Shown here: in pieces, positions 17,489-61,426 of the stretch
Position numbering within the stretch: position 1 is the first letter of the stretch
Layout: each line of letters opens with the position of its first letter
Assembly (NCBI RefSeq): GCF_963921235.1
Contig: NC_086097.1
Span: 155,746,001 to 155,810,000 of the forward strand
Length of the DNA stretch: 64,000 nucleotides
Direction of reading: 5' to 3'
Origin: Mobula hypostoma
Lineage: Eukaryota
The notes under the pieces: generated by a model
The model's input: only the letters and a program-made list of their open reading frames with translations
The model's database searches: none
Told to the model about the DNA's origin: nothing
Made by a program: the position numbers and the translations under genes

Positions 17489-18361
17489 GGGATTGGCTGA
17501 GACAACTACAACTTGATTGGAAATCATCCACCATTTGCATGCTACATCTCCTGTAATAAAGCCAATTGAAAGTGAATTAGAAAAGGTACTGGAAGATGCC
17601 AAAGCAGTGTTCAAGGATGGCACTGGAAATCTCAAACATATCATGGGTCAAATAGTGTTAAATGAAAATATCACACCTAGGTTTTACACAGCTCGTCCTT
17701 TTCCTTATATCATCTGTGATAAATTAATCAGTGAGCTAGATTGTATGGAAGCTGAAGGAATTCTTTTCAAGGTTGAGTGGAGCCCACGGGAACACTAGTA
17801 GTCCCAGTAGCCTACAAGAATGTGTCTATCAAGATCTGTGACGATTATAAGGTCACCATCAACCCAGTACTGAAAGTGAATCAACACCCTCTGCCCAGGA
17901 TAGAAGGTATCTGTGCAAATCTTTCTGGAGGGAAACACTTCAGCAATGTCAGCGTAGCTGAGGCCTGCATACAGATAGAGATGGAAGAAGAGTCCAAAAT
18001 GTTTCTCACATAACTACTCCCGAAGGGTTTTATTGCTATAATAGGCTTATTTTTGGAGTAGCATCTGCACCTGCACTCTGGCAGAAAGCCAAGGACCAGG
18101 TGCTGCAAGGCTGCCCGGGCACTCGGTATTACTGGGATGATACCATTGTTACCAGTAAGGATGACAAGGAATATTTCCAAACCAATGTTAAAAATATTGG
18201 AAGATGATGGGTTTAGAACATGACAAGCATCTTTAAAACAAGCATCATTTACTTAGTTACACCATTGATGCACAAGAGTGTTAAGAAAATTTAAGCAGTG
18301 ATGGATACCCCAAGACCAAAGGACATGTCACAGTTGCAGTCTTTTTTTTTAGGAATTTGTT

Positions 18362-20382
18362 CTCACAAAATGTTCCTGAGTGTGTTATTTCTTTAGACGC
18401 CGAGAAAGCTTTTGATAGAGTAGAATGGCCTTATTTATTTAAGGTGCTTGAAATGTTTAATTTTAGCTTGAAATTTATATCCTGGATTAAACTGTTATAT
18501 CATTCCCCTGTAGCCTCGGTCCGTACTAACTCTTTAAACTCACCTTTTTTCCCTCTTTTTCGAGGTACTCGACAAGGCTGTCCTCTTAGTCCCCTATTAT
18601 TTGATATTGCATTAGAACCTCTTGCAATTGCCATTCCAGAATCTTCAAATATTACTGGGATAACTCGGGGATTAAAGTCCCATAAATTATCACTCTATGC
18701 TGATGATTTACTTTTATATATTTCTAATCCTGAGAAATCCATTCCTGCTGTTTTAGAATTATTAGCACAATTTGGTTTTTTTTCAGGTTATAAATTAAAT
18801 CTTAGTAAGAGTGAACTCTTTCCGATTAATAAACATCTTCCCTTATATTATAAATTTCCATTTAAATTGATTGATAACTATTTTTCTTATCTTGGGATTA
18901 AAATTACTTGTAAATATAAAGATTTATTTAAGATTAACTTTTTACCATTAATAGACCATATTACTCAACTTTCATCTAAATGGTTTCCTTTATATTTAAC
19001 TTTGATTGGTCGTATTAATGCAGTTAAGATGTTTTTTTTTGCCAAAATTTTTATATGTGTTTCAGGCATTACCAATTCTTGTTCCAAAATCTTTCTTTGA
19101 TAAAGTTGACTCTAAAATTTCTTCATTTATTTGGCAGAATAAAAATCCGAGACTGGGTAAAATACATTTACAGAAAGCTAAGAGAGATGGAGGTTTAGCA
19201 TTACCTAACTTTAGATTCTATTATTGGGCAATTAATATTCGACATATGAAATTTTGGTTACTTGACCAGGATATACTATCTATTCCTAAATGGGTAGCGT
19301 TGGAACTACAATCTGTTCAGGGCTATACACTTGGCTCTATTTTAGGTTCCTCTCTCCCTTTTGATTCGAAACGCCTTAAGCAGGTGTCTAACCCGATAGT
19401 TAAATATGCTTTGCGTATTTGGTTTCAATTCAGAAAATTTTTTGATCTTAATCAATTCGGGTTAGCGATTCCTATTTTAGGTAACATATTTTTTCCTCCC
19501 TCTTTTACGGATCGCGCTTTTCAAACTTGGAAGACTAAGGGTATTTTACGGTTTTTGGATTTATTTTTAGATGGTTCCCTTATGTCTTTTGAACAATTAT
19601 CTAATAAATATAACTTATCAAGAATACATTTTTTTAGATATTTACAAGTTAGAAATTTCCTAAGTACTATACTTTCTTCCTTTCCAATGCTTCCTCCTAC
19701 ATATATTTTAGATTCGATAATTAACCTTAATCCATGTCAGAAAGGTGCATCGGCTATGATTTATAATATTATTATGAAACTTAGGAAAGCTCCATTTGAT
19801 AAGATTAGGGTAGATTGGGAACAGGAATTGGGGCTTACCATTTCTGTGGATGATTGGGGGCAGATTTTACAATTAGTTAATACTTCCTCTATTTGTGCTA
19901 AACATTCCCTAATTCAATTTAAAGTTGTTCATAGAGCACATATGTCCAAAGATAAGTTAGCGCGTTTTTACTTGCATATTAATCCTTTTTGTGATAGATG
20001 TTCGGGGCAGATAGCCTCTTTAACTCATATGTTTTGGTCTTGCCCTACTTTGGAAACTTTTTGGAGAGACATTTTTAATATTATTTCTAAGGTATTAAAT
20101 ATAGATATCTCTCCTCACCCTATCACTGCTATCTTTGGACTACCTAAAATTTCTAGTAATCTTTCCCCTTCAGCCCGTAGAATGATTGCATTTCTTACTT
20201 TAATGGCGAAAAGATGTATTTTACAACATTGGAAAGAGCTTAATGCTCCAACTACCTTTTTTTGGTTCTCTCAGACGATATTATGTTTGAATCTGGAGAA
20301 AATTAGAAGTAACCTTTATGATTCTTCATTTAAATTTGAACAGACTTGGGGATCTTTTATTCGATATTTTCATTTAATGTAA
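18362..20382 (+). pseudogene. L1 ORF2 C-terminal part (RT and CCHC knuckle) with a single +1 frameshift
   Basis: SLDAEKAFDRVEW, RGTRQGCPLSPLLF, LYADDLLLY, GGLALPNF, CDRC..THMFWSC; frameshift in the T9 run at 19032-19040. Confidence 0.93.
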
Positions 20383-20734
20383 TATATACCCTTCTTGTTT
20401 TTTTTTCACTGTTTTTAATGGAGGTCGGGATTGAGGACGTGATTTTAAGTTTAACTCTGTTTGGTTTCAAGTTAGCCCATTGCTTTGCTTTGCTTTTAGT
20501 TAGTTGCACGGTGGGTTTTTTTGGGGGGGTTTTTTTTTCTTTTTTTCTATTGATATATATATAAAATTTAGTATACTATTATGTTATCTTGGTTTCTTAT
20601 GTTTAAATTACATTGTTTGTAGTTTTTTTTTGGTATTGATACCTTCTGTAATTTTACTATATTTTAACATTGTATTAATGTTTATATGGCTTACCTTTTT
20701 GTATACTTATTCAATAAAAAGATTTAAAAAGAAA
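18362..20734 (+). mobile_element. Young 5'-truncated L1-clade LINE
   Basis: 11-bp TSD AGGAATTTGTT at 18351-18361 and 20735-20745; AATAAA at 20713 and A-rich tail; T-rich 3' UTR. Confidence 0.95.
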
Positions 20735-23638
20735 AGGAATTTGTTAATTACTATTATAGGTTCCTGCCAAACCTGGCTACTGTGCTCCACCCCTTGAACT
20801 CATTATTACAGATCAGGAAGAAATGACAATAGACAAAGCAGTGTGAGGTGGCTTTCCAAAAGGTAAAGGAAATGGTGATGTCAGACATTGTACTCAAATT
20901 ATGATCCACATTACCCAGTGAAGCTTGCCATACACTGTTCAGGATGCCAACAAATCTAGAAGAAGGTGTCCCGAGCTTCAGAACCACTTTCTGCTGTCCC
21001 AAACTCAATTCCTACAACCACCACAAAGGAGTCCTTAGAACCTGAGTTTTTTCACAGCCACAAGTCTCTCCTGCCAAGCAGAGTGGCCCCCATTCCCACC
21101 CCTTGTCAGGAAAGACACATCCCACAAAAGTAGGAAATCATCCACATCAATTATATCTTTAGGTCCGAATGGGAGAATTTAAAATTCACTATGCTGTGTA
21201 TGTCCACATAGTAGTTGTCTTATATAGTATACTGTGTATATAGTTGAGATGCATTATATATTGAGTTGGAGTTTTCAGCTAAACAGGCACAAGGACTGTG
21301 TATTTAATATTTCAGTAATATTTTGGTAATATTGTAAATACATTGTTTGATTAAGCATTCTTGTTCTTTTGAATACTTCATTATGGGTTATATGTAAAAG
21401 CACATGGATGGCATATGTCATCATGCCACCACGTTGTACGTGCATATCTCACTTCAAGTACCAGCGAACATACATGAGCTATCTCCTGGCTCCTTTCTTT
21501 TCCTTTCAATTTGTTTTTGTCTTTTGAAGTTACAAAATATTACAGGGCACAGAACAAACAGTGTCTTGTTGGAGTGAACAGATAGAGGAGTGGTGAGATC
21601 TTTTTCTTTCAGACAGAAGATGTCTTGAACTGTGAATTTCTGTGCATTCTGGGGCAGGAATGGAGTCTTATATATGATCCTCTGACTGTGTCCCTCCACA
21701 GCGGCGATTGTGCGACTTGATGGAAATGGTGGGTGGGTAGTAGGGAATGTTGCCTACTTGTTGCATTCCTTGTGAATGGTCACTGAGTGCTCCAATAACA
21801 GATTTGAGGTGCTCAGTACCTTCTTGGACAAACTTACGCCATTTTCAACACTTACTGTCTGTGCAATCACAAATTATTAAGCATATAATATGTATTCAAG
21901 AACAGTCAGGTGAGTTTTCTCTGTTCTTCAAGACTTCTCTTTCCCTACAAACTCACGATAGGATGATTTTTGGGGGGATTTTGGTGTCAGATTTCAGACA
22001 AGTCCACTTGGTGTTGATAGAGTAGGAGTAAAACCATCGTGTTGTGGGTTTTGGCCTGGAAGGGAATGTATAATTTGATCTGTCTATTCTGACAATTAAA
22101 ACGTGCAGAATTTTGCAGAGACAATGTTATTATTATGCCAGTGTTTTGAGGTGTTTGCTATGGGTTGTTTACACAATTTGACATTAATTCTGAGGTTTCA
22201 ATCCCTGAATAATTTTTCTTCTCAGTTGGTCATGCTCGTGCACCGAAGGCAATGGTTTGTCATCAATGTTTGACTTCATTGAGTGTTGGATCCCAAGATA
22301 CAGAAGGTAATCTACCTTTTCCAAGGTCCGTAAGTTACCCAATGATAAATTGGTGACAAGGGAATCAGGAAAGAGTTAATGGACACTTTGGTCTAACTCT
22401 GCCAGAGCAGCTTTCTGGCTTCACACCTGGCCCCTTCTCTGTAGCCTTTCAATTTATTTTCCTCACTGTATATTGATCTATTTTCTTTTTGAATACAGAT
22501 TCCTACCACATGCTAAGTAAAATATAAGGTTTTACCTCCTCTGCAACTTTCCTGTTGCAAATCTTACCAAGATCTGGAATAATTTCAGAGTTGCAAACCT
22601 CAGCATATGCCCTCATCATTTTTCTGTTCCTCAGTAACTGGATTCAACCTAGTTGCAAATTGTTATGTAGTCTGCATGTTAAAATGCCAAGGAATTGGTT
22701 ACATTCTAAGATTCCTAAGAGACATCACTGATAATGTCATGGAACATCTGCTCTGATCATTGAAATTAGAACAACAATGAACTTATACCTCTAGTTCCAT
22801 TTTGGGGATTCAATAAAATTTATATTCATGGTAAATTAGGCTAACAGTTTCAGACATCATCTGAATCATTAAATTGTATTATTCTTTGACATGTTACTAC
22901 TCATTTATTACCTCACAATACTTGTTGCCTCAGGAACATAAAACATCGTTTTTGCTCATATCAATAAGGCTAGCTGGCTGCCATCTTTTATACAAAAGTC
23001 ACATGATTTGCTCCTGATATTTCTGAAAATGAAATGCTATGTGATCAATATATCTTATTGTCTTGAAATGTTTTCAAACCAGGACAGGCAAACCCCATAA
23101 ACAAGAAAACAATTTCTCTTGGTGTTTATCAGAATAAGCAAGGCTGACATTGGGTAAGAAGATCAACCTGATGGATGTGGGCCCTCACAGAGGCCCAGAG
23201 CTAATACATGAATTCATACATTGCTGTAATGAAATGGTAAGATATTTTGAAACATTTTATTCAGCAAAGTACATTTGAAGTAATATCAGTAATTACTTTG
23301 TGAACAAATATTCTGAAACAGAGACATTCCATAAATCCTTACAACTAGTTAATCCCTCTCCAGTAGTATTATTTGAAGGAAGAAAGTTGTGTATGGTAAT
23401 GTGACAACTTCCTACTCTTCTTCGAGCAGCATTCATTTGTTCCAAGTGATAGGTTGGAAAACTCCAATAAATAAGTGTTTGCATCTCAATTAGAAAGGAA
23501 ACTTAGCAATTTAGAGGGTTAAAGATAAACATAGACTTTACTCAAAAATGCACGACTGTCATTAAAAGAATGATAATTATTGATTATTTTTGACCAAAAA
23601 GAATCCATCTGACATTTAAGAGATAGGTACATGGATGT

Positions 23639-24199
23639 CTGGAGTGTATGGGGTGTCAGGGTAGCATCTCTGGTGGGGAAACATGTCACGTTCTTTTCAA
23701 GGTGGTTAGTCCACCTTTGGTCCCCACCTGGAACTCAACTCTCACCTGTGGCTCCTCGTAGCTGTTTGCATACGATAGCGGCCACACCCCTGGCAATGGC
23801 TTCGACAAGCCGGCTAAACCAGATGAGGATAGCCGATAGGTCTCAAACCCTCGGTGAGATAGGGAGATGTCTATCCCAGCATGTGAAGACAGACTCTGGT
23901 GGTTTGAGCAGACAAGACCTATGGAAGGCCCGACTGTCAAGAAGGAGGTCTCTGCAAGTGTCGTGGAACGTGTAGAGCACGGCAAGACACAGAAGACATC
24001 CTGGTCATCCACTGCACCTAGTCCCATCTCCAGCCATCGCAACTCTGTCTTGCCACTGGATCCAGATGGGAATTGGGAAGAAAGAGCGTTAGGCTGACGC
24101 TATGCAACTCTCCCTCACTTAAATCCAAATCATGCACTAATCTCAACACCATCAATGGTGTCGAGGTCTTCATCAACAACAACGATGGACGAAAAATAT
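23639..24199 (+). mobile_element. RTE-type short non-autonomous element inserted in a CR1 tail
   Basis: 9-bp TSD CATGGATGT at 23630-23638 and 24200-24208; structured 5' end; flanks rejoin as a CR1 3' fragment. RTE assignment is by resemblance. Confidence 0.75.
23650..23827 (+). ncRNA. Predicted HDV-like self-cleaving ribozyme (slightly decayed, hairpin inserted after L3)
   Basis: P1 GGGGTGT/ACACCCC; P2 CTCACCTG/CAGATGAG; P3 GGC/GCC; L3 TCCTCG; GGCAA; P4 TGGCTT-CGAC-AAGCCG; J4/2 GCTAA. Confidence 0.65.
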
Positions 24200-24373
24200 C
24201 ATGGATGTAAGAAAAATGGCTCATGGGCTGTACAGGAGGGATGGATTAGATTGATAGTAGAGTAGGCTTATACTGGTTGGCACAGCTTTGTGGGCCAAAG
24301 GACCCATACAAGCTGTACTATTCTATCTTAACAAAGAATTAATCCTCCCCAATGAGCTATACACGCTCCTGTA

Positions 24374-24917
24374 CATTCAGTGACCACTTTATTAGGTACA
24401 CCTGTACACCCGCTCGTTAATCCAAATATCTAATCAGTCAATCATGTGACAGCAACTCAATGCATAAGAGCATGCAAATACTGTCAAGAGATTCAGTTGT
24501 TGTTCAGAACAAATATCAGAATGGGGAAAATATGTGATCTGAGTGACTGTGACCAATGACTGATTGTTGGTTCCAGACAGGGAGGTTTGACTATCTCAGA
24601 AACTGCCAATCTCTTGGGATTTTTATGCTCAGCAGTCTCTAGAGTTTACAGAGGATGGTGCAAAAAGCAAAAATTGAAAATCATCCAGTGAGTGCAGTTC
24701 TGTGGGCAAAAACGCCTTGTTAATGAGAGAGGTCAAAGAAAATGGCCAGACTCATTCAAGCCGACAGGAAGGAGGCAGTAACTCAGATAACCACACACTA
24801 CAACAGTGATATGGAGAAGAACATTTCTGAGTGCACGTCAAACCTTGAAGTGGATGAGCTACAACAGCAGAAGATGACAAACATACCTCATGTACCTAAT
24901 AAAGTGGCCATTGTGTG
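24374..24917 (+). mobile_element. Non-autonomous Tc1-like element
   Basis: TIRs CATTCAGTGACCACTTTATTAGGTACA / TGTACCTAATAAAGTGGCCATTGTGTG; remnant peptide MARLIQADRKEAVTQITTHYN; second copy at 50371. Confidence 0.85.
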
Positions 24918-27900
24918 GATATCTTGTAAGTTGAGTTGTTATTGGCATTTCCTTTACTATATTCTATTTAAAACAGCTGTTTACCACCCCTGTTGGTTCA
25001 TGCTGTTCGGGAATTCTGTTGTTCAGAATTCAGGAATAATGTTCAACCATTCCTGCTGTGCAGGAAGCGCCCCTGTGTGTTTTGATTGAAATCTAGTGCC
25101 TGAAGGTGCACCATCAAAGCAAACTAGACCTCTCTCTGTGCATGGGAAGAAACTGCTGCTACAAACTTCTGCAATGATTTTGAAAGAGACCTGTGCAATG
25201 AAATGATGTTCATCGTTTATTGTCAAGGTTGAATGTTCCATTCAATTAAGAGCAGAATGAATTTGGATAGTTTTGCTACTGAGGCAGAATGTGCATCATT
25301 TTCAATTTATTGAAGTAGCTATTTGGCAAAAGACTTTGAATAATGGGACTGTGAAAAAGAGGTTAAAGCAAAGAACTTATTATTGATTGTCTACAAATAT
25401 AATGGGGTGAATCACATTATCTGTAGACTTTTACTGAATTATTAAATTCCCATGTGATTGTGGATTCAGCAGGTAAATGTTAAAAGTAGGCATCCAATTA
25501 GGGGCACCCTGATGAGGTATTATTAACTTGAAGTAACAGTACCCAAGAGCAATTTGAAAGAAATTGTAATATGATCCTGGGGAGAACAAAGCAAAGCTGA
25601 ACATAACATTTACAATACAGTGCAGAACCAGTCTCTGAAATTGCAGAGATTGCATGAGAGCTCTTCGGTATCTTTATCACTTATTACTTAAATCATAAAA
25701 TTAAGGATTATTGTTGTAATATTAATAGTCATGAAACTTACAAAATTCATTATGATTAAGTTTTCAAAATATACATCCCTTGCATCTTGCAATAAATGAT
25801 AACGGATATTTCTAAACTGGTTATCACAGAGCAGGATTGGAGTGTTCTTGTAGCCTAGCAATTACAGAGCTAGCTTCCCACACATTGGATGAAGAATGGG
25901 TGTATATCTCTGTCACTTAAAGATTTTTGTTTCTTAGGTGTCTTGCCTTGGACTGTAAAGTTTGAATTCCGTAAAAAAGATTACATGGATAAGAGTTTAT
26001 CACATTTCTGTAAACAGATTCCTGTTTTTGGCTTTCTGCATCGATTCCTCATTTGCCTTTTCCATCTGGTTATGGGATCCTATTCTTTCTCAGTTCTTTG
26101 CCTGTGACTCACTGTTATCTTCCAACAGAGTTGTTCTAAATAACACCCTTCACTTCTTGTTTTTGACTAAGTCTAACTTTCCCCACAAGTTTCTAGCTGG
26201 CACTTTAATTAAGAAGGCTAGCATTTTAAGGGATAGCTTTCAGTCAATGTGGGTAGCCAATGGGGACATGGAAATATTCTCCAAAAGGTATTAAAGGTCT
26301 GGAGACTATTTTGTCAACAGGGCCCGACAAATAGTTTGAGAAAATTCCCCGTCCTAAAGTAATACGCAGAGACGGCCCATCCAGAATCAAGGTTATGTTA
26401 TTTGGGAATGATGGGAGAGATTAGCAAAGACCTGCAGAGACAGAGGATTGAATCAGCAGTATCCCATTTTGTGGGACCTGAATTTCATAATGTCAGTGTT
26501 CTAAAGTAGGAACTTTGTCTACTTTGGAACTAATGTGACTTCAATTCTCATCGATATCAACAAACCCGATTCAGTTTAAGTTTAAAATGGAAAACCAACT
26601 GTAATGAATGGATCATTTTAACAGCCTTGCTTCTGTATTCCACCACACTGTCAGAATCCCTCCTCTACATTTTAACCTTTTACTTAAAGGTTCTTTTAAT
26701 TAATTATCCTGAGTAAATTTATAGCACAATTATTACAGAAATCTAAACCAAGATTGACTATGTATTGTGTTTAAAAATGATAATACTCTATAATTAGCAT
26801 TTTAATCTCATGCAAGTGAGTGTTAGAAAAAGTCTAATTGCCTGGAAGTAAAACTTACATATACTCATAACTCCTCCCTAAACAACAGGCTTGTTCACAT
26901 TTCTAATGAAGTTGGGCAGTCCACTAGGTTGTGTAAGGACAAACATGGATGTCACTCTTGCTCATCTAGAACAGGTGTCAGTCACTTACTTGTACGAAAA
27001 GTAACCAAAACCCAGCTTTCGATTGCCTTGCAACCTTAAGGAATCAACTTGCATGGCGGTGGTGGATTGTGATGTGAGATAAAGAGAGTGGCAGTCTAAA
27101 TGTCCTGCATCATATGTTGTTGATATGAAGGAGGTTAGGAATGTTTTTTTAGCTGGTTTCTTTCATTCTTTTTTGCCTTTTCAAACACAGATCGTTTTTA
27201 ATGTTCCCTTCTCTGTAGATGGCTAACCAGCTGAGCTTTCATAGCATTTTATTTATTTTAGAATTTCAGCAGCCCCAATGTTTTGTAGCTCTCTGTTCCT
27301 GCAATTTTAAACTTTATTTGTGTGTACTCTTTCTTTGCTTGTCATTCTATTTATAATCCATCCAGCCAGATTAGTGTCATTTACAACCCTCCTTTACCCT
27401 CTCAGTCAACATTGATCATTGTCATCTATTCTCTCTTGGATCTCTAATTATCATACCACATTCGTTTTGTTCATCCTGACCACTTGCCTTCTCTGCAACT
27501 TAAAAATTTCACGTTTTCCAAGTTTTTAAAATCTAATGCAAGGTCGCTGTCAAAAGTCAATGATCCTAAATAATCCCCAAGGAGCTGATGAACTATATCC
27601 TTGAAATGGTTCCTGAGGTTTGGGGGTGAAAAAGAAAACAAGAAACTATAGTGATGATCATGTATTCTTAGGAGGAAGGAATCTATACTGCAACTTGCGG
27701 TGCAGAACTTTGGCCACTGGGATTGATCAAGGCAATAACCTTCCCTATGGCAGACACAGGAGGAGCCTTCCATGATTACAACATGATATTTCTCCTTTGC
27801 TGAAGAGTGTCACAATTATGAACATCTCTGAGTTTTCCTGGCTTGTCCTCCTCTTCACTGTGTGGGAGAGAAGCTGTGACAACGTGACTGAAATTCCTTT

Positions 27901-28514
27901 CAGCAAGGTTTTAGGAATTTAGCAGAGATAGATCTGCTTCTGACAGCTCAGTTTTTCTTGGTTAGCAAATAGGCTTTTTGATTTTTTAAACATGAAAGAT
28001 CCTGCAGATGCTTGAAATCCAGAGCAACACATACAAAATGCTGGAGAAATTCTGTCAATGTTTCAGACAAAGACCCCTCATCAGGATTGAGAAAGGGTGG
28101 GAAGAAGCCAGAATAAGGTGGGGAGAGAACACTCCATATCTTTTCAATATAAGCATGAAAAAACAAGTGGCACAATGATAAACTCTAACATAATACTTCC
28201 TTCAAAATTGATCAACCAAACGTTTACCAATATTACTGAAAACCCAAGACTCACAGGTGTTGTTGTTTCAAGAGTAAATAATGAGTGGATGGAGATGAAT
28301 GTCTTTCCACTGACTGAATAAAAACTAACTCCGCAGGAAATGGCATAAAAACCAGCTTGCATATAGGAAGCGATGCTCATACAAAATGAACTGCACCTCT
28401 AGAGGCCAGAATGCTTCCTGCCTGGCATCCTTGTGATGTCAAACTTAACTACTGAATCTAATGGTTAAATAATCATTTCATTAAGTCTTTGGAAAAAGAA
28501 ACATAGTGTCAGAG

Positions 28515-29056
28515 TCAGTCAGTCAGTCAGCAGGTGCCGTCCTGAATCTGGGGATGGTGGCTATGTGCCTCCATCTTCTTCGATCTTGCAACAGCACCGA
28601 GTACAGCCTCTCCTCCAGTTTCTTCTCGTTGGCCGCCTTGGCACCACCCTCCGAACTGGAGCCTGAGGCTGTGTCGGCCACCAGCCGCGGCCGCTTCTTC
28701 GAGCTCGGCCCTTCCTTAGGTGGAGGCCTTGGGCAGGTCCAGGCACACAGTGCAGTGCCCAAGTTCATCATGTCTCTTCTAACTAAGTGTATAGCATATG
28801 ATGCATAGATATGTGGCGAGGCTTTAATCTCTTCCACGGAAGATGGCCGTTGGCTCACAAGGAGCTCATCCACCCTTTGTCAGGTCTTGCATTTTTTTAG
28901 TCCTGCTGGGTGTCCTCACACCCTCCTCACCAGACTAAGTCTGGTGGGGGAGCCAGCCCAAGTCGCCGACCACTCCACCATGGCCCCTGGCCAAGCACCG
29001 GGCACCCGCCCCCCCGCTGAATCTCTCCGAGCGTCCGGCGCCCGACCGAAAACCAC
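28515..29056 (-). mobile_element. RTE-type non-autonomous retroelement carrying host-gene cargo, inserted in BEL
   Basis: 9-bp TSD GTGTCAGAG at 28506-28514 and 29057-29065; (CTGA)4 tail; RTE-like C-terminus LVRRD...LLQDRRRWRHIA. Confidence 0.85.
28591..28755 (-). pseudogene. ZFTRAF1: Circularly permuted fragment of the N-terminal coding region of ZFTRAF1/CYHR1
   Basis: 28754-28722 encodes [11 protein letters not shown]; 28721-28591 encodes PKEGPSSKKRPRL...[11 protein letters not shown]. The vertebrate CYHR1 sequence as I recall it reads [25 protein letters not shown], so the two halves are swapped. Confidence 0.85.
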
Positions 29057-30246
29057 GTGTCAGAGACTGATCTTAAAAACAGTCTTACTGGACTGTCTTT
29101 AACTGTTCTCACTTCAAAAATGCTGGTCTTGATGACATACTTGCTTGTGGTATTTTCTAATGAGCAGTAAGGTGACATGCTGTTTACCCAGAATGACAAT
29201 TGTGCAACAAGTTATCTCAGAAGTGAGTCATGCCTTCGTAATCCACCCTTTAACTTGCAGTAGTCTCTCAGAGTCAAGAAAGGGAAAGAGTTTACTCAGT
29301 GTTCTTTGTTCTGGGGGAGATTCCTGATTTGTGATGCATTGCATTTCCTCTGCATAAATCTGTCTTTGAATAACAAGAAGGATTTTAACCATTGCCTAAT
29401 TTAGTTGCTATATGCTGAGAGGTTGTTTATAAATATGCCAACCATTGCAAAGGCTGTCTTTGGCCAATCTTGTACAGGAATTACCTCTTTTACAGTCTGC
29501 CATCTCAACTACTAAAACTGCAGCACCTAGTTCAAGCTTTGGTATGGTGAGATCTGGTTCAGCAGCAAGTTTTGCTTTGCCCAGGATGAATTCAACCTCT
29601 GTGACCTTCTGGTATGCTCAGCAGGCAATAGCTTTAGTTGACGCATCACAGGAGATGCAAACCTCTTCCTTTTGGACTGCAGATAATGGAATAAATGTGT
29701 AGATTCTTGGAATTTTCAAGCCTTTAAGATCCTGAAGAGAAAAAGCCCACTGCTTCCAATGCCATGGTTCTCGTTAGGAGGTGGGGTATCCCATCTACAA
29801 GTGACTGAGGTCAACTCTCTTAGCATGAAACATCCCTGGATACTGACCAGAGCAGCAGTTCTGAGATGGTCAAATACACCGTTGATAGTTAATAGCACGC
29901 CACAACATGAAAAGAGTTTTTCAGTATCAGTGACCTGGAATGCACTGTATAGGAGGGAGGTTCTGTTCAAGATCAAGGTTCTCTGGACCTTTGGCCACAT
30001 CTTTGGATGGGAAACATTGCATGATCGAAGTACTGCTGTATGTGATCTTATGCAGTCTGAGGTTAGACTGTACCAACATGTCTTGTGCTGCTTTCGGCAC
30101 GCTGAATTCTTCTTCTGCATTACAGAATGATTTAAGACCATCATGTACATAAAATGTCTTTTATGCTCCAGACCTGAATTTCTTCTCTCCCTTGATAGCC
30201 GTCCTCTTATGACAATAGTTGGTGAGGGACATTTATCAAATACCCA

Positions 30247-50370: not shown

Positions 50371-50911
50371 CACTCAGTGGCCACTTCATTAGGTGCCTCC
50401 TGTGGCAAATAAAGTGGCCACTTACTGTACGTTCGTGGTCTTTTGCTGCTGTAGCCCAGCAACTTCAAGATTCAACACATTGTGCATTCAGAGATATTCC
50501 TCTGCACGCCACTGTTGTAGCACATGGTTATTTGCATTACTATTACCTGCCTGTTAGCATGAACAAGTCTGGCCATTCTCCTCTGATCTCTTATCATTAA
50601 CAAGCCATCTTCACCCATAGAACTACCACTCACTCTTGGTTTTTTTGTTTGCTTTTTGCACCATTCTCTAAACTCTAGAGGCTGTTGTGCATGAAAACTT
50701 CTGTAAATCAACAGTCTCTGAGATTTCTGAGATACTCTAACCACCTTGACTGGCACAAACAATCATCTCCCAATCACACTTCTTCCCCATTTTAACCTCT
50801 TAACCATGTCTGCAAGCTTTGATGCGTTGAGTTGCTGCCATGCGATTGGCTGATTATATATTTGTATTAACAAGTAGGTGTACAGGTGGACCTAATAAAG
50901 TGCTATTAAAT
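50371..50911 (-). mobile_element. Non-autonomous Tc1-like element (family of 24374)
   Basis: TA then CACTCAGTGGCCACTTCATTAGG; MARLVHANRQVIVMQITMCYNSG on minus. Confidence 0.8.
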
Positions 50912-52373: not shown

Positions 52374-53378
52374 CATACATGTTTGAATATATAATTTATC
52401 TCAGGCCAGAGAGACTTAAATAAATGAGTTGTATATATTGAACTGATGATCAAATGAATTTCAACTAAATATAGCTTTCTTCTTTGAAAATTACTTCTGT
52501 AAATGTCTCTATATAATAAATCTGAGCCTTCAGGAGAATTGTTAGGTATCACTTATTCCTTTTCTTCTAGATGTCCCTCAGTTTTCATTTCTGGTTATTA
52601 GAGCGTACATTTGAATTAAGAGTCGCCGTTACAGCAATTTCAATTGCAACCACATAGAAAAATTGAGATCATGCTGTGGATCTGCTGTTTCTGGGTTATT
52701 GTTAACTGAGCCTACCAGCCTGTTCATTATTCCTCTCAATTCTTTTTTGATATACAGTATTTCCAATTCCTCCAGTCCTTCAGTAGCCATCCTTTTTAAT
52801 TGATTACTGACACCTTGTGAAGATATCCATGATTATTAGCAAATACTGAGTGAAGCAGCTGTCAGCCAAGTTTGACTCATTACCATCTGCTTACATTAGT
52901 GAAAGGAGACTCAGCCATCTGCACCAATAAAGCTGTTACCTACCCTGCTCCTGTTTCCTCTCCTTACTCCAGCTCAGTAATGTCCAAGGTCTTGTGGTAC
53001 AAAGAAAATCCTTCCGGTTTCTTACTTTTTAAAAATTCTGTGGTTTCTTTGAGTATATTGGCTTTAATCAGCTTCATTTAATGCCATAAATCATTCTATT
53101 AACTTCTCTGACAGTATACTCTATTTCAGTGTGAAGTCGTCTAATTTTATAGATCATAGAGCATTAAACATAGAACAGTACAGCTCAGTACATGCCCTTC
53201 ACCCCACTATTTTCTTAGGAAATATCTTACTTTGGATTCAAAATAGCTGACATCAATTTTGTTCCTTGCTGGATATCTTCTTCAGATAATAATAAGCCAA
53301 CACTAATCATTTCCCGCAACACACATCAAAGTTGCTGGTGAATGCAGCAGGCCAAGCAGCATCTGTAGGAAGAGGTGC

Positions 53379-53414
53379 AGTCGACGTTTCAGGCCGAGAC
53401 CCTTCGTCAGGACT
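53379..53414 (-). ncRNA. Minimal type I hammerhead ribozyme motif
   Basis: AGUC-CUGACGA-AGG(GUCUCGG)CCU-GAAA-CG-UC^GACU. Confidence 0.8.
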
Positions 53415-53431
53415 AACTGAAGGAAGCAGTT

Positions 53432-53467
53432 AGTCCTGACGAAGGGTCTCGGCCTGAAACGTCAACT
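53432..53467 (+). ncRNA. Minimal hammerhead motif with a stem I mismatch
   Basis: AGUC-CUGACGA-..-GAAACGUC^AACU. Confidence 0.7.
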
Positions 53468-56016
53468 GCACCTCTTCCTACAGATGCTGCTTGGCCTGCT
53501 GCGTTCACCAGCAACTTTGATGTGTGTTGCTTGAATTTCCAGCATCTGCAGAATTCCTGTTGTTTACTAATTATTTCCCTTCTAGTTCCTAGTTGTATTT
53601 TCATTTAGCAAGAATTTAGAAAAGTTATTGGTCCTAAAAGTTAGTGTAATTCAGAGCCAAAATAGTGGTAGTCCATCAAATTATATAAACCCATAAGCAA
53701 ATTTTACGCACAATTTGAGTATATTAACCATTCAGTTACAGCAATTACTTGGTCTGAATAGTGCAATTTTACATCATGGAATGCATTGACCTATTGAGCC
53801 ATCCTGAGAATCAAATAACATTTCATTTGTAGTTCTTTTCTAAGGTAAAGTTTTACAAAATTGAGGGACAAATAACCAATGTGTGATAAACCTGTTAATG
53901 TTAAAGGGCAGGATATCGAATGGTAAACTTCATGCTACTGTCAGAAAGGGTGATGTATTCCCAACGGTATGTAAAAAGATAAAGCCAATTAAGGAAGATC
54001 AAGATGCCAAACTGAATGAAAGGGAAAGCAGAATGTTGATAAGTCCGAAGTTAGTACTGGAGAAACAAATTAAGCAAGTGAAGGACAGTGCAGAACCTTT
54101 TTGCGATATATCATAAACAATGTAAAAAAATAGTGAATCTTATATAAAAAAAATTACAACCTGAGCTTGGTCAGGTATTTGGAGGACTAGAGAGCAATCA
54201 TCACTTTGTACTCTCACCTGATAGTTTCTGCCTTTATGACTTCCATTATCAGGAGACATTTCATGCTTTACATCAAAAGCAACATCTTTAAGAAGTTCTT
54301 TATCAAAGCCTGCTCCTGGCTCCTGGCACCTGCTCCCTGCTCAGTACTGCATACTCTGAGCACTTCTTCTGTTTCTCATATTGAGTTTAGCACTGCAGGT
54401 GTTTCATACTCCTCGATGGATCCTATTCTTCATCAAATTCATCCTCCAGGCATTATAAAGGATTTTCCACAGCTGTTGATTTAGGATAATGATTTGTCTT
54501 TAGGATGAAAAATATGTGCAACCATGATATGCTCACAATCTAAATATGTATATTTTACTCTATTGACAAAGTGGACTGAATAGTGAAAACATAGAAAAAG
54601 TATTTTAACCATGAAATACTTTTACTTAGAGATTTTAAAAAGAGAGAAAAAAAACATCATACACTCTGAACAGATCAAAGTTTGGTGACATGAAAGAATC
54701 CAGGGATTTAAAAGTTTGTATTTACAGGATATTAAAATAGATAGATTAAAAGCTATGGCCACAAAAATGAAATAATTGTTTGTATTTTAAGAAATGGAAA
54801 ACAGAAAAATGAAGATGTCATGGTGAACCTATTTAAAATGTTAGAATGTTTCAACATGGGTTTTGTTCAATAGGAAAGGCATTAAACAGTAGAAAGGAGA
54901 CTATTTAAATAGGATGCTGTCTAACTTGAGGAAATGGACATGAAAATACTTAAAACATTTGAATATTTCAATAAATTTCAAAGATAGTTAAAGGAAAAGG
55001 ATAAAATTTACTGGTGATTTTTGAAAATAGTTGACAGGGAACTGATCAACTGAGGAAAGAAGAATTATGTTAAGAAACTGGTGAAAATCAAAGTCAACAT
55101 CAAGATATTTGTCATCTGCACAAATATATGCAAGCACAATTGAAATTAAAAACTTACTTGCAGAAGCATCACATTAAGATACAAAATGATATTGTATCTG
55201 TTAAATAGGGGCTGTGGACAATTCTGATTTGATGAAGACAGACGTGAAAAGCAAAGGAACATCTGGAGAAATTTCTGAAATGCCTGGTTCACTGCTGTTG
55301 TTACTGTGCGATCGAGAATCTCCGGAGGGTAGGCCCCAAAATACCTGGCTTTGCCTGCTGCTGGTGACCGAGGCTGAGGTCGAAGTGTTCGGATAGAGAT
55401 GGTGCTCGGTACTCGGTGTCGGAGCGCTGATCAGAGCTCGAAGTTTTTGGACGGGTCAGAGTCGGACTGTGGTTGGGCATGGCAGGGAGAGTTTTCTTCC
55501 TTCTCCCGTCTGTGTGAGATGTGGGGACTTTCGAGAAACTTTGAACTATTTTACTGTGCCATGGACTGTTCTTCATCAAGTTATGGTATTGTTGCACTGT
55601 TGTAACTATATGTTACAATTAACACACATTAAAGTTGCTGGTGAACACAACAGGCCAGGCAGCATCTCTAGGAGGAGGTACAGTCGACGTTTCAGGCCGT
55701 GACCCTTCGTCAAGACTAACTGAAGGAAGAGTTAGTAAGAGATTTGAAAGTGAGAGGGGGAGGGGGAGATCCAAAATGATAGGAGAAGACAGGAGGGGGA
55801 GGGATGGAGCCAGGAGCTGGACAGGTGATTGGCAAAAGGGATATGAGAGGATCATGGGACAGGAGGTCCGGGGAGAAAGACAAAGTGGGGGGGGGGGTGG
55901 ACCAGAGGATGGGCAAGGGGTATAGTCAGAGGGACAGAGGGAGAAAAAGGAGAGTGAGAGAAAGAATGTGTGTATAAAAATAAATAACGGATGGGGTACG
56001 AGGGGGAGGCGGGGAA

Positions 56017-56740
56017 TTAGCGGAAGTTAGAGAAGTCAATGTTCATGCCATCAGGTTGGAGGCTACCCAGACAGTATATAAGGTGTTGTTCCTCCAACCT
56101 GAGTGTGGCTTCATCTTTACAGTCGAAGAGGCCGTGGATAGACATATCAGAATGGGACTGGGATGTGGAATTAAAATGTGTGGCCACTGGAAGATCCTGC
56201 TTTCTCTGGCGGACAGAGCGTAGGTGTTCAGCAAAGCGGTCTCCCAGTCTGCGATGGGTCTCGCCAATATATAGAAGGCCACGTCGGGAGCACCGGACTC
56301 AGTATATCACCCCAGCCGACTCACAAGTGAAGTGTCGCCTCACCTGGAAGGACTGTTTGGGGCCCTGAATGGTGGTAAGGGATGAAGTGTAAGGGCATGT
56401 GTAGCACTTGTTCCGCTTACAAGGATAAGTGCCAGAAGGGAGATCAGTGGGGAGGGATGGGGGGGGGGCGAATGGACAAAAGGGTCGCGTAGGGAGCGAT
56501 CCCTGCGGAAAGCAGAGAGGGGGGAGGGGAGGAGGGAAAGATGTGCTTAGTGGTGGGATCCCATTGGAGGTGGTGGAAGTTACGGAGAATAATATGTTGG
56601 ACCCGGAGGCTGTTGGGGTGGTAGGTGAGGACCAGGGAAACCCTATTCCTAGTGGGGTGGCGGGAGGATGGAGTGAGAGCAGATGTACGTGAAATGGGGG
56701 AGATGCGTTTGAGAGCAAAGTTGATAGTGGAGGAAGGGAA
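56017..56740 (-). pseudogene. Penelope ORF C-terminus with GIY-YIG endonuclease (premature stop, frameshifts)
   Basis: GTYPCKRNKCYTC..HFTCESAGVIY*VRCSR.GLLYIGETHRRLGDRFAEHLRSV..PVATHFN..LQPDGMNIDFSNFR*. Confidence 0.9.
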
Positions 56741-57085
56741 GAGCAGAGTTGATAGTGGAGGAACATCGACTTCTCTAACTTCCGCTAATGCCCCACCTCC
56801 CCCTCGTACCCCATCCGTTATTTATTTTTATACACACATTCTTTCTCTCACTCTCCTTTTTCTCCCTCTGTCCCTCTGACTATACTCCTTGCCCATCCTC
56901 TGGTTCCCCCCCCCCACCTTGTCTTTCTCCCCGGACCTCCTGTCCCATGATCCTCTCATATCCCCTTTTGCCTATCACCTGTCCAGCTCTTGGCTCCATC
57001 CCTCCCCCTCCTGTCTTCTCCTATCATTTTGGATCTCCCCCTCCCCCTCCCACTTTCAAATCTCTTACTCACTCTTCCTTCAGTT

Positions 57086-57121
57086 AGTCCTGACGAAGGG
57101 TCTCGGCCTGAAACGTTGACT
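57086..57121 (+). ncRNA. Minimal hammerhead ribozyme motif
   Basis: AGUC-CUGACGA-AGG..CCU-GAAA-CG-UU^GACU. Confidence 0.78.
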
Positions 57122-58062
57122 GTACCTCTTCCTACAGGTGCTGCCTGGCCTGCTGCATTCACCAGCAACTTTGATGTGTGTTGCTTGAATTTCCAGCATC
57201 TGCAGAATTCCTGTTGTTTATGTTATAATTATGTGGTTTTGTTAGTTTTTCAGTCTTGGTCTGTCCTGTGTTCTTGTGATATCACACCGGAGGAATATTG
57301 TATCATTTCTTAATGCATGCATTACTAAATGACAATAAAAGAGGACTGTGTGTCCTCATAATCTAATCTAATCTAAATATATAAAAGAAAAACATGTTAA
57401 GCATAAAATTACACACAAGTTTTAAAAAAACGAACACAATAGGAGCAAAAAATAAATGAAGTCTGTGGTAGTGCAAAGTGGTCAAATTAACCATAATGTT
57501 TGGATACAGTGGCAGTGATTAGAGTTGTAAAAGTTGGTTGAAGAGACATTTAGTTGAAGGAAAGTAATTGTTTTTGATGGGAGAAGATGTCATTATTCTA
57601 GATGTATGACTGAAAATAAGGAACTGGGGTTAAAGATATCAGTAAGTAATGAGGATTGAATAATGAATGAGAGCCTGGCCAATAATGCCTATTACTAAAT
57701 AAATGAAAATAAACTTAGGAACAGGACTATTCCCCACATGAAAAATAAACGCTGGTTCATACATTCCTATTTTCTTTTGGACAAAAGCCATTTAAAAGTT
57801 ATTCATCCATCTAACGCTGTTGAGCCAAAGGAATCTGTCCCTGAAATAACAAATTTGTAGCAAGGGAAGAGGATTATTTTGATTTGTTTGATTATGATAG
57901 CCTCAACCTAATTCTGCAGAATTTATGAAACACTGTTTATACATTAACCAACAATGGCACCTATGACTAGTCCATAAACAACTTAAAGCCTGCTTTGTTT
58001 TCATTGCAAAAATAATTCACACGACTTCAGTTATTCAGAAAGGAGGTATCTATTTTAGTGGT

Positions 58063-58196
58063 GAACAACAGGAATTCTGCAGATGCTGGAAATTCAAGCA
58101 ACACACATCAAAGTTGCTGGTGAACGCAGCAGGCCAGGCAGCATCTATAGGAAGAGGCGCAGTCAACGTTTCAGGCCGAGACCCTTCGTCAGGACT
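58063..58196 (-). mobile_element. Penelope terminal fragment with intact hammerhead motif (58161-58196)
   Basis: Matches 53432-53565 on the opposite strand; followed by TTTA/TTTATTTAC repeats at 58196-58243. Confidence 0.88.
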
Positions 58197-58244
58197 TTAT
58201 TTATTTATTTACTTTATTTACTTTATTTACTTTATTTATTTAAA

Positions 58245-58770
58245 TATTTATAAGGCGTTGGTAAGCCTGCACTTGGAGTATTGTGAGCAGATTTGGGTCC
58301 CTTCTCTAAGAAAAGATGTGCTGGCATTGGAGACAGTCCAGAGAAGGTTCACGCAATTGATTCCAGGATTGAAGGGGTTAACACATGAGGGGTATTTGAT
58401 GGCTCTGGGCCTGTACTCTCTTGAGTTTAGAAAAATGAGGGGGAATGTTATTGAAACCCATTGAATATTAGAAGGTCTGGATGGAGTGGATGAGGGGAGC
58501 ATCTTTCCTGTTGTGGGTGAGTCTCGGTCTAGGGGGCATAGGCTGGAATAGAGGAACGTCCACTTAGAATGAAAATGAAGAGGGAATTCTTTAGCCAAAT
58601 GGTAGTGAATCTGTGGAATTTATTGCCACAGATGACTGTGGAGGCCAAGTTATCGAGTATGGAAGAAGCATGAGAATGGAGTTGAGGGGGATAATAAATT
58701 GGCCATGATGGAGCACATTCAATAGGTCAAATAGCCTAACTGTGTTCCTACATCTTACGGTCTTATATTT
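58245..58770 (+). mobile_element. CR1 3' fragment
   Basis: YKALVSLHLEYCEQIWVPSLRKDVLALETVQRRFTQLIPG; tail TCTTACGGTCTTA. Confidence 0.88.
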
Positions 58771-59114
58771 ATATTGTGAAATGATATGTGTGGATAGCAT
58801 GTAAAACAATAGTTTTCACTGTATCTCAGTACATTTAACGACAACAATAAACCAATTAATCTTGAGTATGTAACCTAGACATTAATTTTTTTAAAAATAC
58901 CACAAAACTAGGAAAAGGAGATCACTGTTCAGGGTCTTGAATTGTTTCACTAAATAAAATACCTTCAGAACAATCAAAATAGGAATGCGTGCAAACTACA
59001 AGTGTGAGGGCATATTAGTAACTGCAATTACTAATTCAAGCTACTTTGAGAAGATCTCCCAAATTTGGAACCTCTTCTGTCCAAGAACAGGTTATGAATT
59101 TAAGAGGCATGATT

Positions 59115-59489
59115 AGATTGCCAGGATAATCAAGGACACAACCCACCCAACCAACACACTTTTCATCCCTCTTCCCTCCGGGAGAAGATTAGGAGCTTGA
59201 AGACTCCTACGGCCAGATTTGGGAACAGCTTCTTTCCAACTGTGATAAGACTGCTGAACGGATCCTGACCCGGATCTGGGCCGTACCCTCCAAATATCCG
59301 GACCTGCCTCTCGGTTTTTTTGCACTACCTTACTTTCCCTTTTCTATTTTCTATTTATGATATATCATTTAAATTTTCAATATTTGCTATCAATTTGTAC
59401 TCCAGGGAGCACAAAGAGCAGAATCAAATATCACTGGGATGATTGTACGCTCTGGTATCAATTGTTTGGCGACAATAAAGTATAAAGTA
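59115..59489 (+). mobile_element. Rex1-like LINE 3' end
   Basis: IIKDTTHPTNTLFIPLPSGR..RFGNSFFPTVIRLLN; tail CAATAAAGTATAAAGTA. Confidence 0.8.
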
Positions 59490-60260
59490 GTGGGTCTGCA
59501 GATAACACAAAACACTTAGTTAGGGTTGTTAGTAGTGAGGAGGTTAATCTTATGCTCCAGGACAAATAGAGGGAACTTGTTATACATTTCCCGGGATCTC
59601 TGAAAGTGGAAAAAGAGGCAAATAAATTGGTGAAGAAGATATCTGGGTTATTTGTCTTCAACAGCTGGATATCAAGGTGTAAGGAGGTTATGCTACAACT
59701 TAATACAACATTTGTTTGGCCACAGCTGGAGTATTGTGTATAGTTCTGCTGATGCTTCCAGAAGAACATGATTGTTCTGAAGACGTCAAAGAAGAGATTC
59801 ACTATGATGTTGCCTTGGTGGACCATTTCATTGCATCTTGTGAAGAGAGACTGGATAGGCTGGTATTCCTTTTCTTAAACTGGACAAGGCTGGGAGGGAC
59901 TTCAATGAGGCATAGAAAATTATGAGAGGCAAAGAGTAGGCTTATGAGAGGCCAAGGTAAAGAGTAGGAAACATTTTCCAATAGTAGAGGAACACAGATT
60001 AAATCTGAGTGAAAACTGGAATCTGAGGAAGATTTTATTTTCAGTGAGAGGACAGTTGAGATCTAGAAAACTTTGTTTGAATAGATAGTGGAGGCAGGTA
60101 CAGAGGTGCCACTTAAGATGTATCTTGTTGAACACTTTAATCACTAAAGTATAGAAGGCTATTGACCAAATGCTGATAAAGAGGATTATTATAGAAAGAC
60201 ATTTAATGGTTGGCATTGACATAGTGGACTGAATGGCCTGTTTCTGCACAGAATGAACAG
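59490..60260 (+). mobile_element. Degenerate CR1 3' region
   Basis: ADNTK, WPQLEYCV motifs; CR1-like 3' UTR GGACTGAATGGCCTGTTTCTG. Confidence 0.7.
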
Positions 60261-60741
60261 ATTCTTCAAGAAGCTCACTTCTAATGGACAATTAGTGATG
60301 GGCAGTAGCTGATGACTTTGTCTATGATATTTGCACCCAGCAAAAAAATCTAAACTTATTTGTACAGAAAGAGTTTTGAATGCTATCATAAACTATTATA
60401 TTCCCTCTCTTTTGGTTTTATGCTGACTTTGACTTCCCTTATCAGCTACAGTTACCACATCCTCCTTTTAGAATTCTTCTTTGGGATGTCTCTACCCTGT
60501 GCCTTCTGAATTGTTCCAGAAAATCCAACCATCATCCCTGATAGTATCCTCTTCCAATCAACTTAGGCCAGCTCCTCGCTTATGCCTCTGTTGTTCCTTT
60601 TTACTCCACTGATACTGTTACATCTGACTTTAGCTTCTCCCTCCCAAACTGCAGGGTGAATTCTATCAAAGGGTTCCTTTACCATTAGTTCCCTATTCTC
60701 ACTAAGCTTAGTGGAACACGGAATGAAATCACCACTAAAAT

Positions 60742-60838
60742 ACACATCAAAGTTGCTGGTGAACGCAGCAGGCCAGGCAGCATCTATAGGAAGAGGCGCA
60801 GTCGACGTTTCAGGCCGAGACCCTTCGTCAGGACTAAC
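60742..60838 (-). mobile_element. Penelope terminal fragment with intact hammerhead motif (60800-60835), amid CR1 relics
   Basis: Reverse complement of AGTCCTGACGAAGGGTCTCGGCCTGAAACGTCGACT. Confidence 0.85.
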
Positions 60839-61426
60839 TCAACCTTTAAGTTAACCTTTAGGGAATCCTGCCAAAGACTCAAAAGTACTTATGCGTCTCT
60901 GATTTTCGAATATTTTCTCCATTTAGAAAATAGTCTATGCCTTTATTCCTTTTACCTAACTGCATGACCATATACTTCCCTACACTATAATAGAAAGGAA
61001 AAAAAACAGAAAGAGAATGCAGAGCGTAGTGTTACAGTTACAGTGATAGCGCAGTGCAGGTAGACAATATGATGCAAGGCCATGAGGAGGAAGATTGTGA
61101 GATCATCTTTATTATACAAAAGAGGTTTGCTCAATTGCTATCCTATTCTAATCTTATAACAGCAGGACAGAGAATGTCTTGAGACTGGTAGTGTGTTTAC
61201 CAGCTCTTGCATCTTTTGTCTGAGGGGAGAAGAGAAAACATCCAGGGTGTGAGGGGTATATCAGCTGCTTTCCTGAAGTTTCAAGAAGTATAAACAGTCC
61301 ATGGAGGAGTGGGGCTTTGTTTTTTGATATAGACACCAAGCTGTTTCCACAAATAAGCTACTGGTAATGTTTACATCTTAGAAACAAAATCTCTTAATGA
61401 TCTCTATGCATCACCTTTGACACTTA

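Follow-up and report, generated by a model that had tools for sequence, protein, structure and literature searches.

This locus raises the question of whether a short, decayed retroelement copy opens with an HDV-like ribozyme that carries a hairpin within its L3 loop and, if it does, what that hairpin is for. The copy lies in a 64-kb stretch of DNA, referred to here as the window, and the features that bear on the question are listed with their window positions.

23630-23638, no strand assigned: left target-site duplication, 9 bp; the same 9-mer recurs at 24200-24208.
24200-24208, no strand assigned: right target-site duplication, the same 9-mer as at 23630-38.
23641-24199, plus strand: bipartite non-autonomous RTE copy of family A, 9.0% from the family majority.
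23641, plus strand: G23641, predicted cleavage site and first base of the element.
23641-23647, plus strand: family P1 5′ strand, from covariation and the 5′ boundary; G23643A breaks one pair here.
23648-23738, plus strand: J1/2 domain, from folds and alignments; the window copy has a 5-nt deletion after 23658.
23739-23749, plus strand: P2 5′ strand, from the covariation alignment.
23750-23759, plus strand: P3 5′ strand (23750-52), then the seven canonical L3 positions U20-U26 (23753-59).
23760-23780, plus strand: 21-nt insertion comprising A, a 6-bp stem (23761-66/23774-79) enclosing a 7-nt loop (23767-73), and G; absent from family D and L197.
23772, plus strand: G23772A in the hairpin loop of the window copy.
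23781-23796, plus strand: P3 3′ strand, P1 3′ strand (23784-90), P1.1 3′ strand (23791-92) and J1.1/4.
23791-23792, plus strand: P1.1 3′ strand, GG in the family and UG in the window copy, from alignment.
23797-23812, plus strand: P4 hairpin, with both sides changed in 4/6 pairs.
23813-23829, plus strand: J4/2 (GCUAA) with the predicted catalytic C23814, then the P2 3′ strand with one bulged C.
23823 and 23829, plus strand: G23823A and G23829A in the P2 3′ strand region of the window copy, from alignment.
23879-23888, plus strand: predicted partner of the hairpin loop (23879-84), then a conserved GAAG, from complementarity and covariation.
24142-24166, plus strand: junction at 24154 between the 5′-UTR part and the 3′ tail, with mutually complementary sequence on either side.

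Taken together, the analysis makes it probable that the locus holds the 5′ end of a decayed RTE copy with a predicted HDV-like cut before G23641, and that the loop of the L3 hairpin would pair ∼100 nt downstream as part of a scaffold of the 5′ UTR.

The window copy is 560 bp long (23641-24199) and its divergence from the family majority, 9.0%, compares with 1.4-6.1% for 29 other copies. Alignment to the family identifies the mutations G23643A, a 5-nt deletion in J1/2, G23772A, G23791U and G23823A. Because these changes fall in P1, P1.1, P1.2, P2 and the hairpin loop, the predicted ribozyme of this copy is probably inactive. Moreover, the ribozyme pattern in the window copy alone is not clearly beyond chance, and support comes instead from its relatives. 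A descriptor with free L3 length gave four matches in the window, compared with 5.1 for 64 kb of shuffled sequence; with a 7/7 P1 it gave one match, compared with 0.7 after shuffling. The folding z-score of the window copy RNA was -1.45, and its minimum-energy fold was a rod with an extended P3, in which the pseudoknot was not obtained. Rfam searches of window positions 20000-30000 and of L010, L263 and L197 gave no ribozyme family match; this result is not specific to the hairpin, since two relatives with a normal L3 were missed too.

Elsewhere in the window, positions 18285-20382 hold part of a different LINE, seen as a pair of overlapping frames that match RVT_1 and zf-RVT. At 24385-24836 and 50482-50902 there are two inverted matches (99-109 nt) in sequence that resembles a Tc1-type remnant, and a cluster of near-identical direct and inverted repeats of 100-225 nt, with 90-97% identity, spans 53311-60959.

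The 3.5-Gb source genome was searched with window positions 23630-24210, giving 5,238 candidates; scoring covered 40 of these, and the sequences of 30 were retrieved. With the first 221 nt of a near-majority copy as query, at least 2,592 5′-end candidates of the family, termed family A, were found. A further 29 copies were selected by their 3′ end; 15 of them extend to the 5′ end, and the remaining 14 are 5′-truncated. Family A displays the joined 5′ and 3′ ends of an autonomous single-ORF endonuclease-RT element, a target-site duplication and a short-repeat tail. A 3′-end search recovered only short copies (30/30), a pattern combining the ORF end with the tail had no matches, and a pattern for a sister 5′ UTR had four, every one of them family A. 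Two 4-kb LINEs in the same genome, L257 and L258, carry a 5′ UTR that matches 23641-24154 and, ∼3.5 kb further on, a 3′ end that matches the window from 24154 onward, with broken endonuclease- and RT-type frames in between. Furthermore, the 3′ half of the family A 5′ UTR matches the Repbase entries RTE-11_PSi (370-519), RTE-2_CPB and MAR4_MD, as judged by eye from the supplement of PMC5786205. The match to RTE-11_PSi 370-519 lies at a similar offset and, again by eye, differs at ∼11 of 150 letters. The matches to both ends of L257/L258, together with those to Repbase RTE entries, therefore suggest that family A is a bipartite non-autonomous RTE, and on the sequence evidence its partner is a LINE of the L257/L258 type in the same genome. 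The RTE assignment is based on the 5′-UTR match to Repbase RTE entries and on similarity to ∼1,050-residue endonuclease-RT proteins, the tree described below being built without named references. That a ribozyme can set the 5′ end of an RTE, and that RTEs can be bipartite, is already known.

Related families are present in the same genome: family B, with 136 pattern matches; families C and E, within 160 pattern matches; family F, with 419 matches; and family D. A full-length family B copy, L095, has a Pfam RVT_1 match above the cut-off and an endonuclease match below it. Family A itself was found in seven organisms at half or more of the sampled words. Eight runs, RNA-type runs among them, were examined as contigs, which can reveal presence and sequence variants but neither transcription nor 5′ ends and sites of cutting; the two environmental RNA runs, with a small share each, carry no information on habitat. 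No relative turned up among viral contigs. Of 80 public contigs encoding the endonuclease, ten were matched by the descriptor, many of the other 70 being without a 5′ end. Three of the ten carry the L3 hairpin (L177, L194 and L195) and five have a 7-nt L3 (L188, L197, L203, L247 and L250). Long-loop readings of L214 and L225 were spurious, as both are imperfect 7-nt forms. A profile search added L226, L235 (loop kept, stem unpaired) and L207 (a hairpin with no recognisable L3). In L207 the hairpin and its target lie at ∼350-620, the ribozyme core around them could not be drawn, and the locus is possibly a further rearrangement.

Several composite copies were also observed. Most family B copies among L065-L094 join the same ribozyme head to a 3′ tail unlike that of their own LINE, which suggests a tail swap, and a minority keep the cognate tail or continue into the ORF. 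In family D, many copies (L158, L160, L161, L166, L175 and L267-L277) have no ribozyme and show a GC-rich common leader fused to the remaining 5′ UTR. Template-jump-like fusions to an internal position involve the first 25-35 nt of the element in L032, L040 and L092, and the first 220 nt in L044. Separately, the last bases of the 5′-UTR part and the first bases of the 3′ tail complement each other, in sequences that differ among families A, B and F (window 24142-24166; L095 5′ UTR near 4810-4800 and 3′ end near 1345-1325 on a minus-strand ruler; the family F tail). In full-length elements these segments lie ∼3.5 kb apart, and their complementarity may explain the placement of internal deletions.

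Where would such a ribozyme cut? The element opens with two G-runs, an outer one at 23641 and an inner one at 23650, and the initial annotation had taken the inner run (23650-56) as the P1 5′ strand and G23650 as the cleavage site. Indeed, the inner run makes a perfect 7-bp match in the window copy and in families A, B and F, and one of 24 duplication-defined starts lies at +8. The inner run is 75.7% paired with the P1 3′ strand and has no covarying pair (500/500 shuffles), and in both folds it is paired elsewhere: in intact copies it closes J1/2 by pairing with a stretch at 23728-23737, as a P1.2-type helix. The outer run is 95.7% paired with the same strand and covaries in 3/7 pairs (0/500 shuffles). 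The resulting P1 is of 7 bp, with G-C or A-U at position 1 and hence a purine at the predicted cut site, and has a single mismatch in the window copy. The starts of genomic copies point the same way. Processing of 35 copies gave 24 with a duplication, 15 of which start within 2 nt of the outer G. Among the 29 copies picked by their 3′ end, 15 begin at query positions 11-16 and none at 17-53. Conservation sets in at the outer G in 32/43 family A copies (30 of them chosen by a query that includes that end) and in 18/26 family B copies, which were anchored elsewhere. Cleavage before G23650 is thus very improbable, and both the P1 strand and the predicted cleavage site are reassigned to the outer run, 23641-47.

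This reassignment also disposes of two caveats attached to the original proposal. One, that the first G lay 11 nt inside the element, arose from the wrong P1 register, as the outer G is the first base. The other, a U between P1 and the P1.1 GG, reflects a private mutation of this decayed copy: position 23791 is G in 25, A in four and T in one of 30 family A copies.

A T at position -1 (window 23640) precedes the first G in 26/43 family A copies, as against 8/26 family B copies. The genomic HDV ribozyme is fastest with U at -1 (PMC1874588), but target preference could explain the T.

The fold itself was assessed in an alignment of nine sequences: the window copy, one copy each of families A, B, C and E, and four public loci. 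In this alignment 94.4% of cells pair and both sides have changed in 10/34 pairs, compared with 2.5 in shuffles, a count that is no probability because the lineages are related; a control in which partners were slid gave at most two pairs with double changes. By helix, double changes affect 4/6 pairs in P4, 4/6 between the hairpin loop and its target, 1/6 in the hairpin and 1/11 in P2, and P3 and P1.1 show no covariation in the nine sequences. The elements follow the order P1-P2-P3-L3-P3′-P1′-P1.1′-P4-J4/2-P2′, and U20, C21, G25 and C75 are identical in all nine rows of the hairpin alignment. J4/2 reads CNRA with the predicted catalytic C in all nine sequences and in 29/29 family A copies. The GG of P1.1 follows P1 in 25/29 family A copies and in other families, without covariation, and is broken in the window copy by U23791. 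All six core checks were passed by 16/29 family A copies. Given that P1, P2 and P4 covary and that U20, C21, G25 and C75 are kept across related RTE lineages, an HDV-like fold at the 5′ end of family A and its RTE relatives is well supported as a prediction. Together with the match to the LINE partner, this bears out the earlier placement of such a fold at an RTE-type 5′ end.

All of the segments originally named were found at their coordinates, among them the complementarity of 23650-56 to 23784-90, P3 (GGC/GCC), the UCCUCG start of L3, P4, and GCUAA with C23814. For P2 the single mismatch, A23823, was confirmed, and the extent proved wider, at 23739-49/23818-29 with one bulged C, such that J4/2 becomes the canonical GCUAA. 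An AAGGUGG/CCACCUU stem proposed within J1/2 does not belong to the family fold: at this place another hairpin is conserved, both in the family majority and in family B.

The hairpin between L3 and the P3 3′ strand, first noted in the initial annotation, is real: its stem (23761-66/23774-79) is conserved in relatives. Alignment with family D and L197 shows the insertion as a clean block of 19-21 nt immediately 3′ of the seventh L3 base. Eight lineages keep the hairpin, which sister ribozymes lack. A, C, E, F and L194 have a 6-bp stem and B, L177 and L195 a 5-bp stem, in each case around a loop of 7 nt. The difference, seen in 4/9 rows, is a paired indel that adds or removes one base on each strand; family E replaces the first G-C with A-U, and four pairs vary on one side only. 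The 3′ base of the family E change is a CpG site, which reads T in 11/12 readable E copies, compared with 7/30 in the old family F. Published descriptors require an L3 of the form TYYHCG(N)Y, with 7-8 nt, and allow J1/2 no more than 51 nt (PMC4870747). All seven hairpin sequences tested have an L3 of 26-28 nt in place of the 7-8 nt that fit TYYHCG(N)Y, with U20 and G25 retained and C24 retained in three of the seven, and J1/2 is 90-106 nt; they consequently escape these descriptors, as had been expected of this topology. With an L3 of this length, the hairpin families constitute a variant of the HDV-like fold and not a standard member.

The HDV ribozyme tolerates change at the insertion point. 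Two observations weigh against the predicted ribozyme: C24, which the published descriptors also fix (PMC4870747), is kept in only 3/9 hairpin lineages (A, C and L177), and among R2 ribozymes one whose L3 carries C-to-A and G-to-A changes does not cleave (PMC3774820). It is conceivable that the insertion killed or crippled catalysis and that the fold was kept only as a structural 5′ cap or a protein-binding platform. The loss of C24 in most hairpin lineages fits this reading, L235 and L207 look degenerate, and simulations place U27 near the cleavage-site leader (PMC1874588), where a bulky insert could interfere. However, the 9/9 retention of C75, U20, C21 and G25, the continuing covariation of P1 and the insertions that start at G1 make a loss of catalysis unlikely.

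What, then, might the hairpin do? Six bases of its loop complement six bases immediately 5′ of the conserved GAAG, and in seven L3-type lineages the distance from the stem to this target is 95-118 nt. When the loop was compared with 314 downstream 6-mers, its cognate site ranked first on its own in 7/9 lineages, tied in L207 and came fifth in L194. Reassigning loops to targets gave an equally good result in 960 of 362,880 arrangements, the lineages not being independent. Four of six pairs show double changes, all four from L194, which itself pairs 5/6 and ranks behind four better sites. Families B and D have C-G where other lineages have U-A: in family B the loop C is present in 28/30 copies and the matching GCGUGU target in 20/30, and in family D the matching target is present in 20/24 matches, a count in which one locus appears twice. 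On loop and target alike the B/D change is of CpG type, and the loop-target covariation rests on few independent events. L235 keeps the loop and target, its stem being unpaired, and local folds often bury the target. A regex search for such pairs matched four of the 80 public loci, picking another hairpin in L194 and a poor one in the 5′-truncated L240. These data suggest that the hairpin loop likely pairs with the site ∼100 nt downstream.

The loop sequence invites a different explanation, in which it is a self-complementary signal for dimerisation of two element RNAs and the downstream match a by-product of a repeated near-palindrome. GCAUGC does occur in the loops of A, C, L177 and L207, and UGCA in that of L194. 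In B and D, however, the loop lacks self-complementarity and still matches its own target, and loop and target differ in sequence; dimerisation is accordingly improbable.

In family D the L3 is of 7 nt, and the family B loop is found instead on a hairpin outside the ribozyme, 40 nt before the target (5/5 copies shown). As close homologues keep the core without the hairpin, and as family D keeps the loop-target pair outside the ribozyme, the hairpin appears to belong to a scaffold and not to the chemistry. The main rival is a model of control, in which docking of the loop on its target, made ∼100 nt after the core, would stabilise or shut off the active site as transcription proceeds. L3 forms this site and bears the hairpin directly, and C24, relaxed in 6/9 hairpin lineages, is always C in the hairpin-free loops examined (D, L170, L179, L182, L188, L197, L200, L203, L214, L225, L226 and L247), which suggests a remodelled loop. 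Moreover, a peripheral J1/2 domain can shift the rates of HDV-like ribozymes by orders of magnitude (PMC4908430). The family D pair, on the other hand, is not linked to L3, and we regard such control as possible but doubtful. In its general form the model would have a widespread RTE branch whose L3 docking hairpin, pseudoknotted with a later site, remodels L3, frees C24 and times or locks cleavage, a proposal put forward only tentatively.

A tree of 31 endonuclease-region sequences, built from decayed copies and rooted at the midpoint, does not group the hairpin forms: B, C and L177 fall together, A lies with the normal-L3 forms L226, L197 and D, and L194 stands apart. This tree is compatible with repeated loss of the hairpin, with its movement and with an exchange of 5′ UTRs. 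Exchange is hinted at by the nearly identical cores that A and C carry on distant ORFs.

On the favoured reading, a contact that scaffolds the 5′ UTR, a host read-through transcript would be cut by the HDV-like fold just before G1, by analogy with R2 and L1Tc (PMC3774820, PMC6765202), with C75 the presumed general acid as in known HDV-like ribozymes. The cut would free the element RNA, such that full-length insertions begin at G1, and the protein of the partner LINE would copy this RNA from its 3′ tail. The hairpin and its target would provide an RTE 5′-UTR scaffold contact that rides on or beside L3 and takes no part in the chemistry.

The HDV active site is taken to include an L3 of invariant length, 7-8 nt, and a natural insert of 19-21 nt would widen the fold. 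A hairpin family would add thousands of missed copies per genome, the insertion site would mark where modules could be grafted onto the HDV ribozyme, and the loop-target pair constitutes a testable structure within RTE 5′ UTRs. If the docking model were true, the HDV core would have a built-in, naturally occurring form of long-range tertiary control, in ribozymes of a class invisible to current descriptors. An opossum RTE with empirically optimised UTRs is under development as a gene-insertion tool (PMC13708176). No description of an L3 hairpin was found in the literature searched; the supplements of Ruminski 2011, Webb 2009 and two reviews may bear on the point.

HDV-like ribozymes are known at the 5′ ends of RTE, R1, R2, R4, Ingi/L1Tc and LOA elements (PMC5786205, PMC6765202). 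Family A resembles these ribozymes in its nested double pseudoknot at the first base of the element, its U-C-C..G loop start and its CNRA motif, and differs from them in a hairpin-bearing L3 of 26-28 nt instead of 7-8, in a loop predicted to pair outside the ribozyme and in the frequent replacement of C24 by A. In its bipartite form, an RTE 5′ UTR joined to a 3′ tail, it is like the bipartite non-autonomous RTEs RTESINE2, WALLSI3 and MAR4_MD, and it is also close to the turtle elements RTE-11_PSi and RTE-2_CPB (PMC5786205). With the R2 ribozymes it shares a long J1/2; in that group P1.1, P3 and L3 are most conserved and a C-to-U change abolishes cleavage, and the variation described in the available part of the source concerns J1/2, P4 and the cleavage position, L3 showing point changes only (PMC3774820). 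There is a parallel in architecture to drz-Agam-2-1, which likewise has a large, base-paired J1/2 (P1.2) and an extended P2 of ∼11-12 bp (PMC4908430). The peripheral domains described for drz-Agam-2-1 in the accessible text lie in J1/2 only, with distal ends that make no tertiary contacts, and that text does not mention an insertion in L3 (PMC4908430); in family A, by comparison, a hairpin sits within L3 and its loop is predicted to reach a partner downstream.
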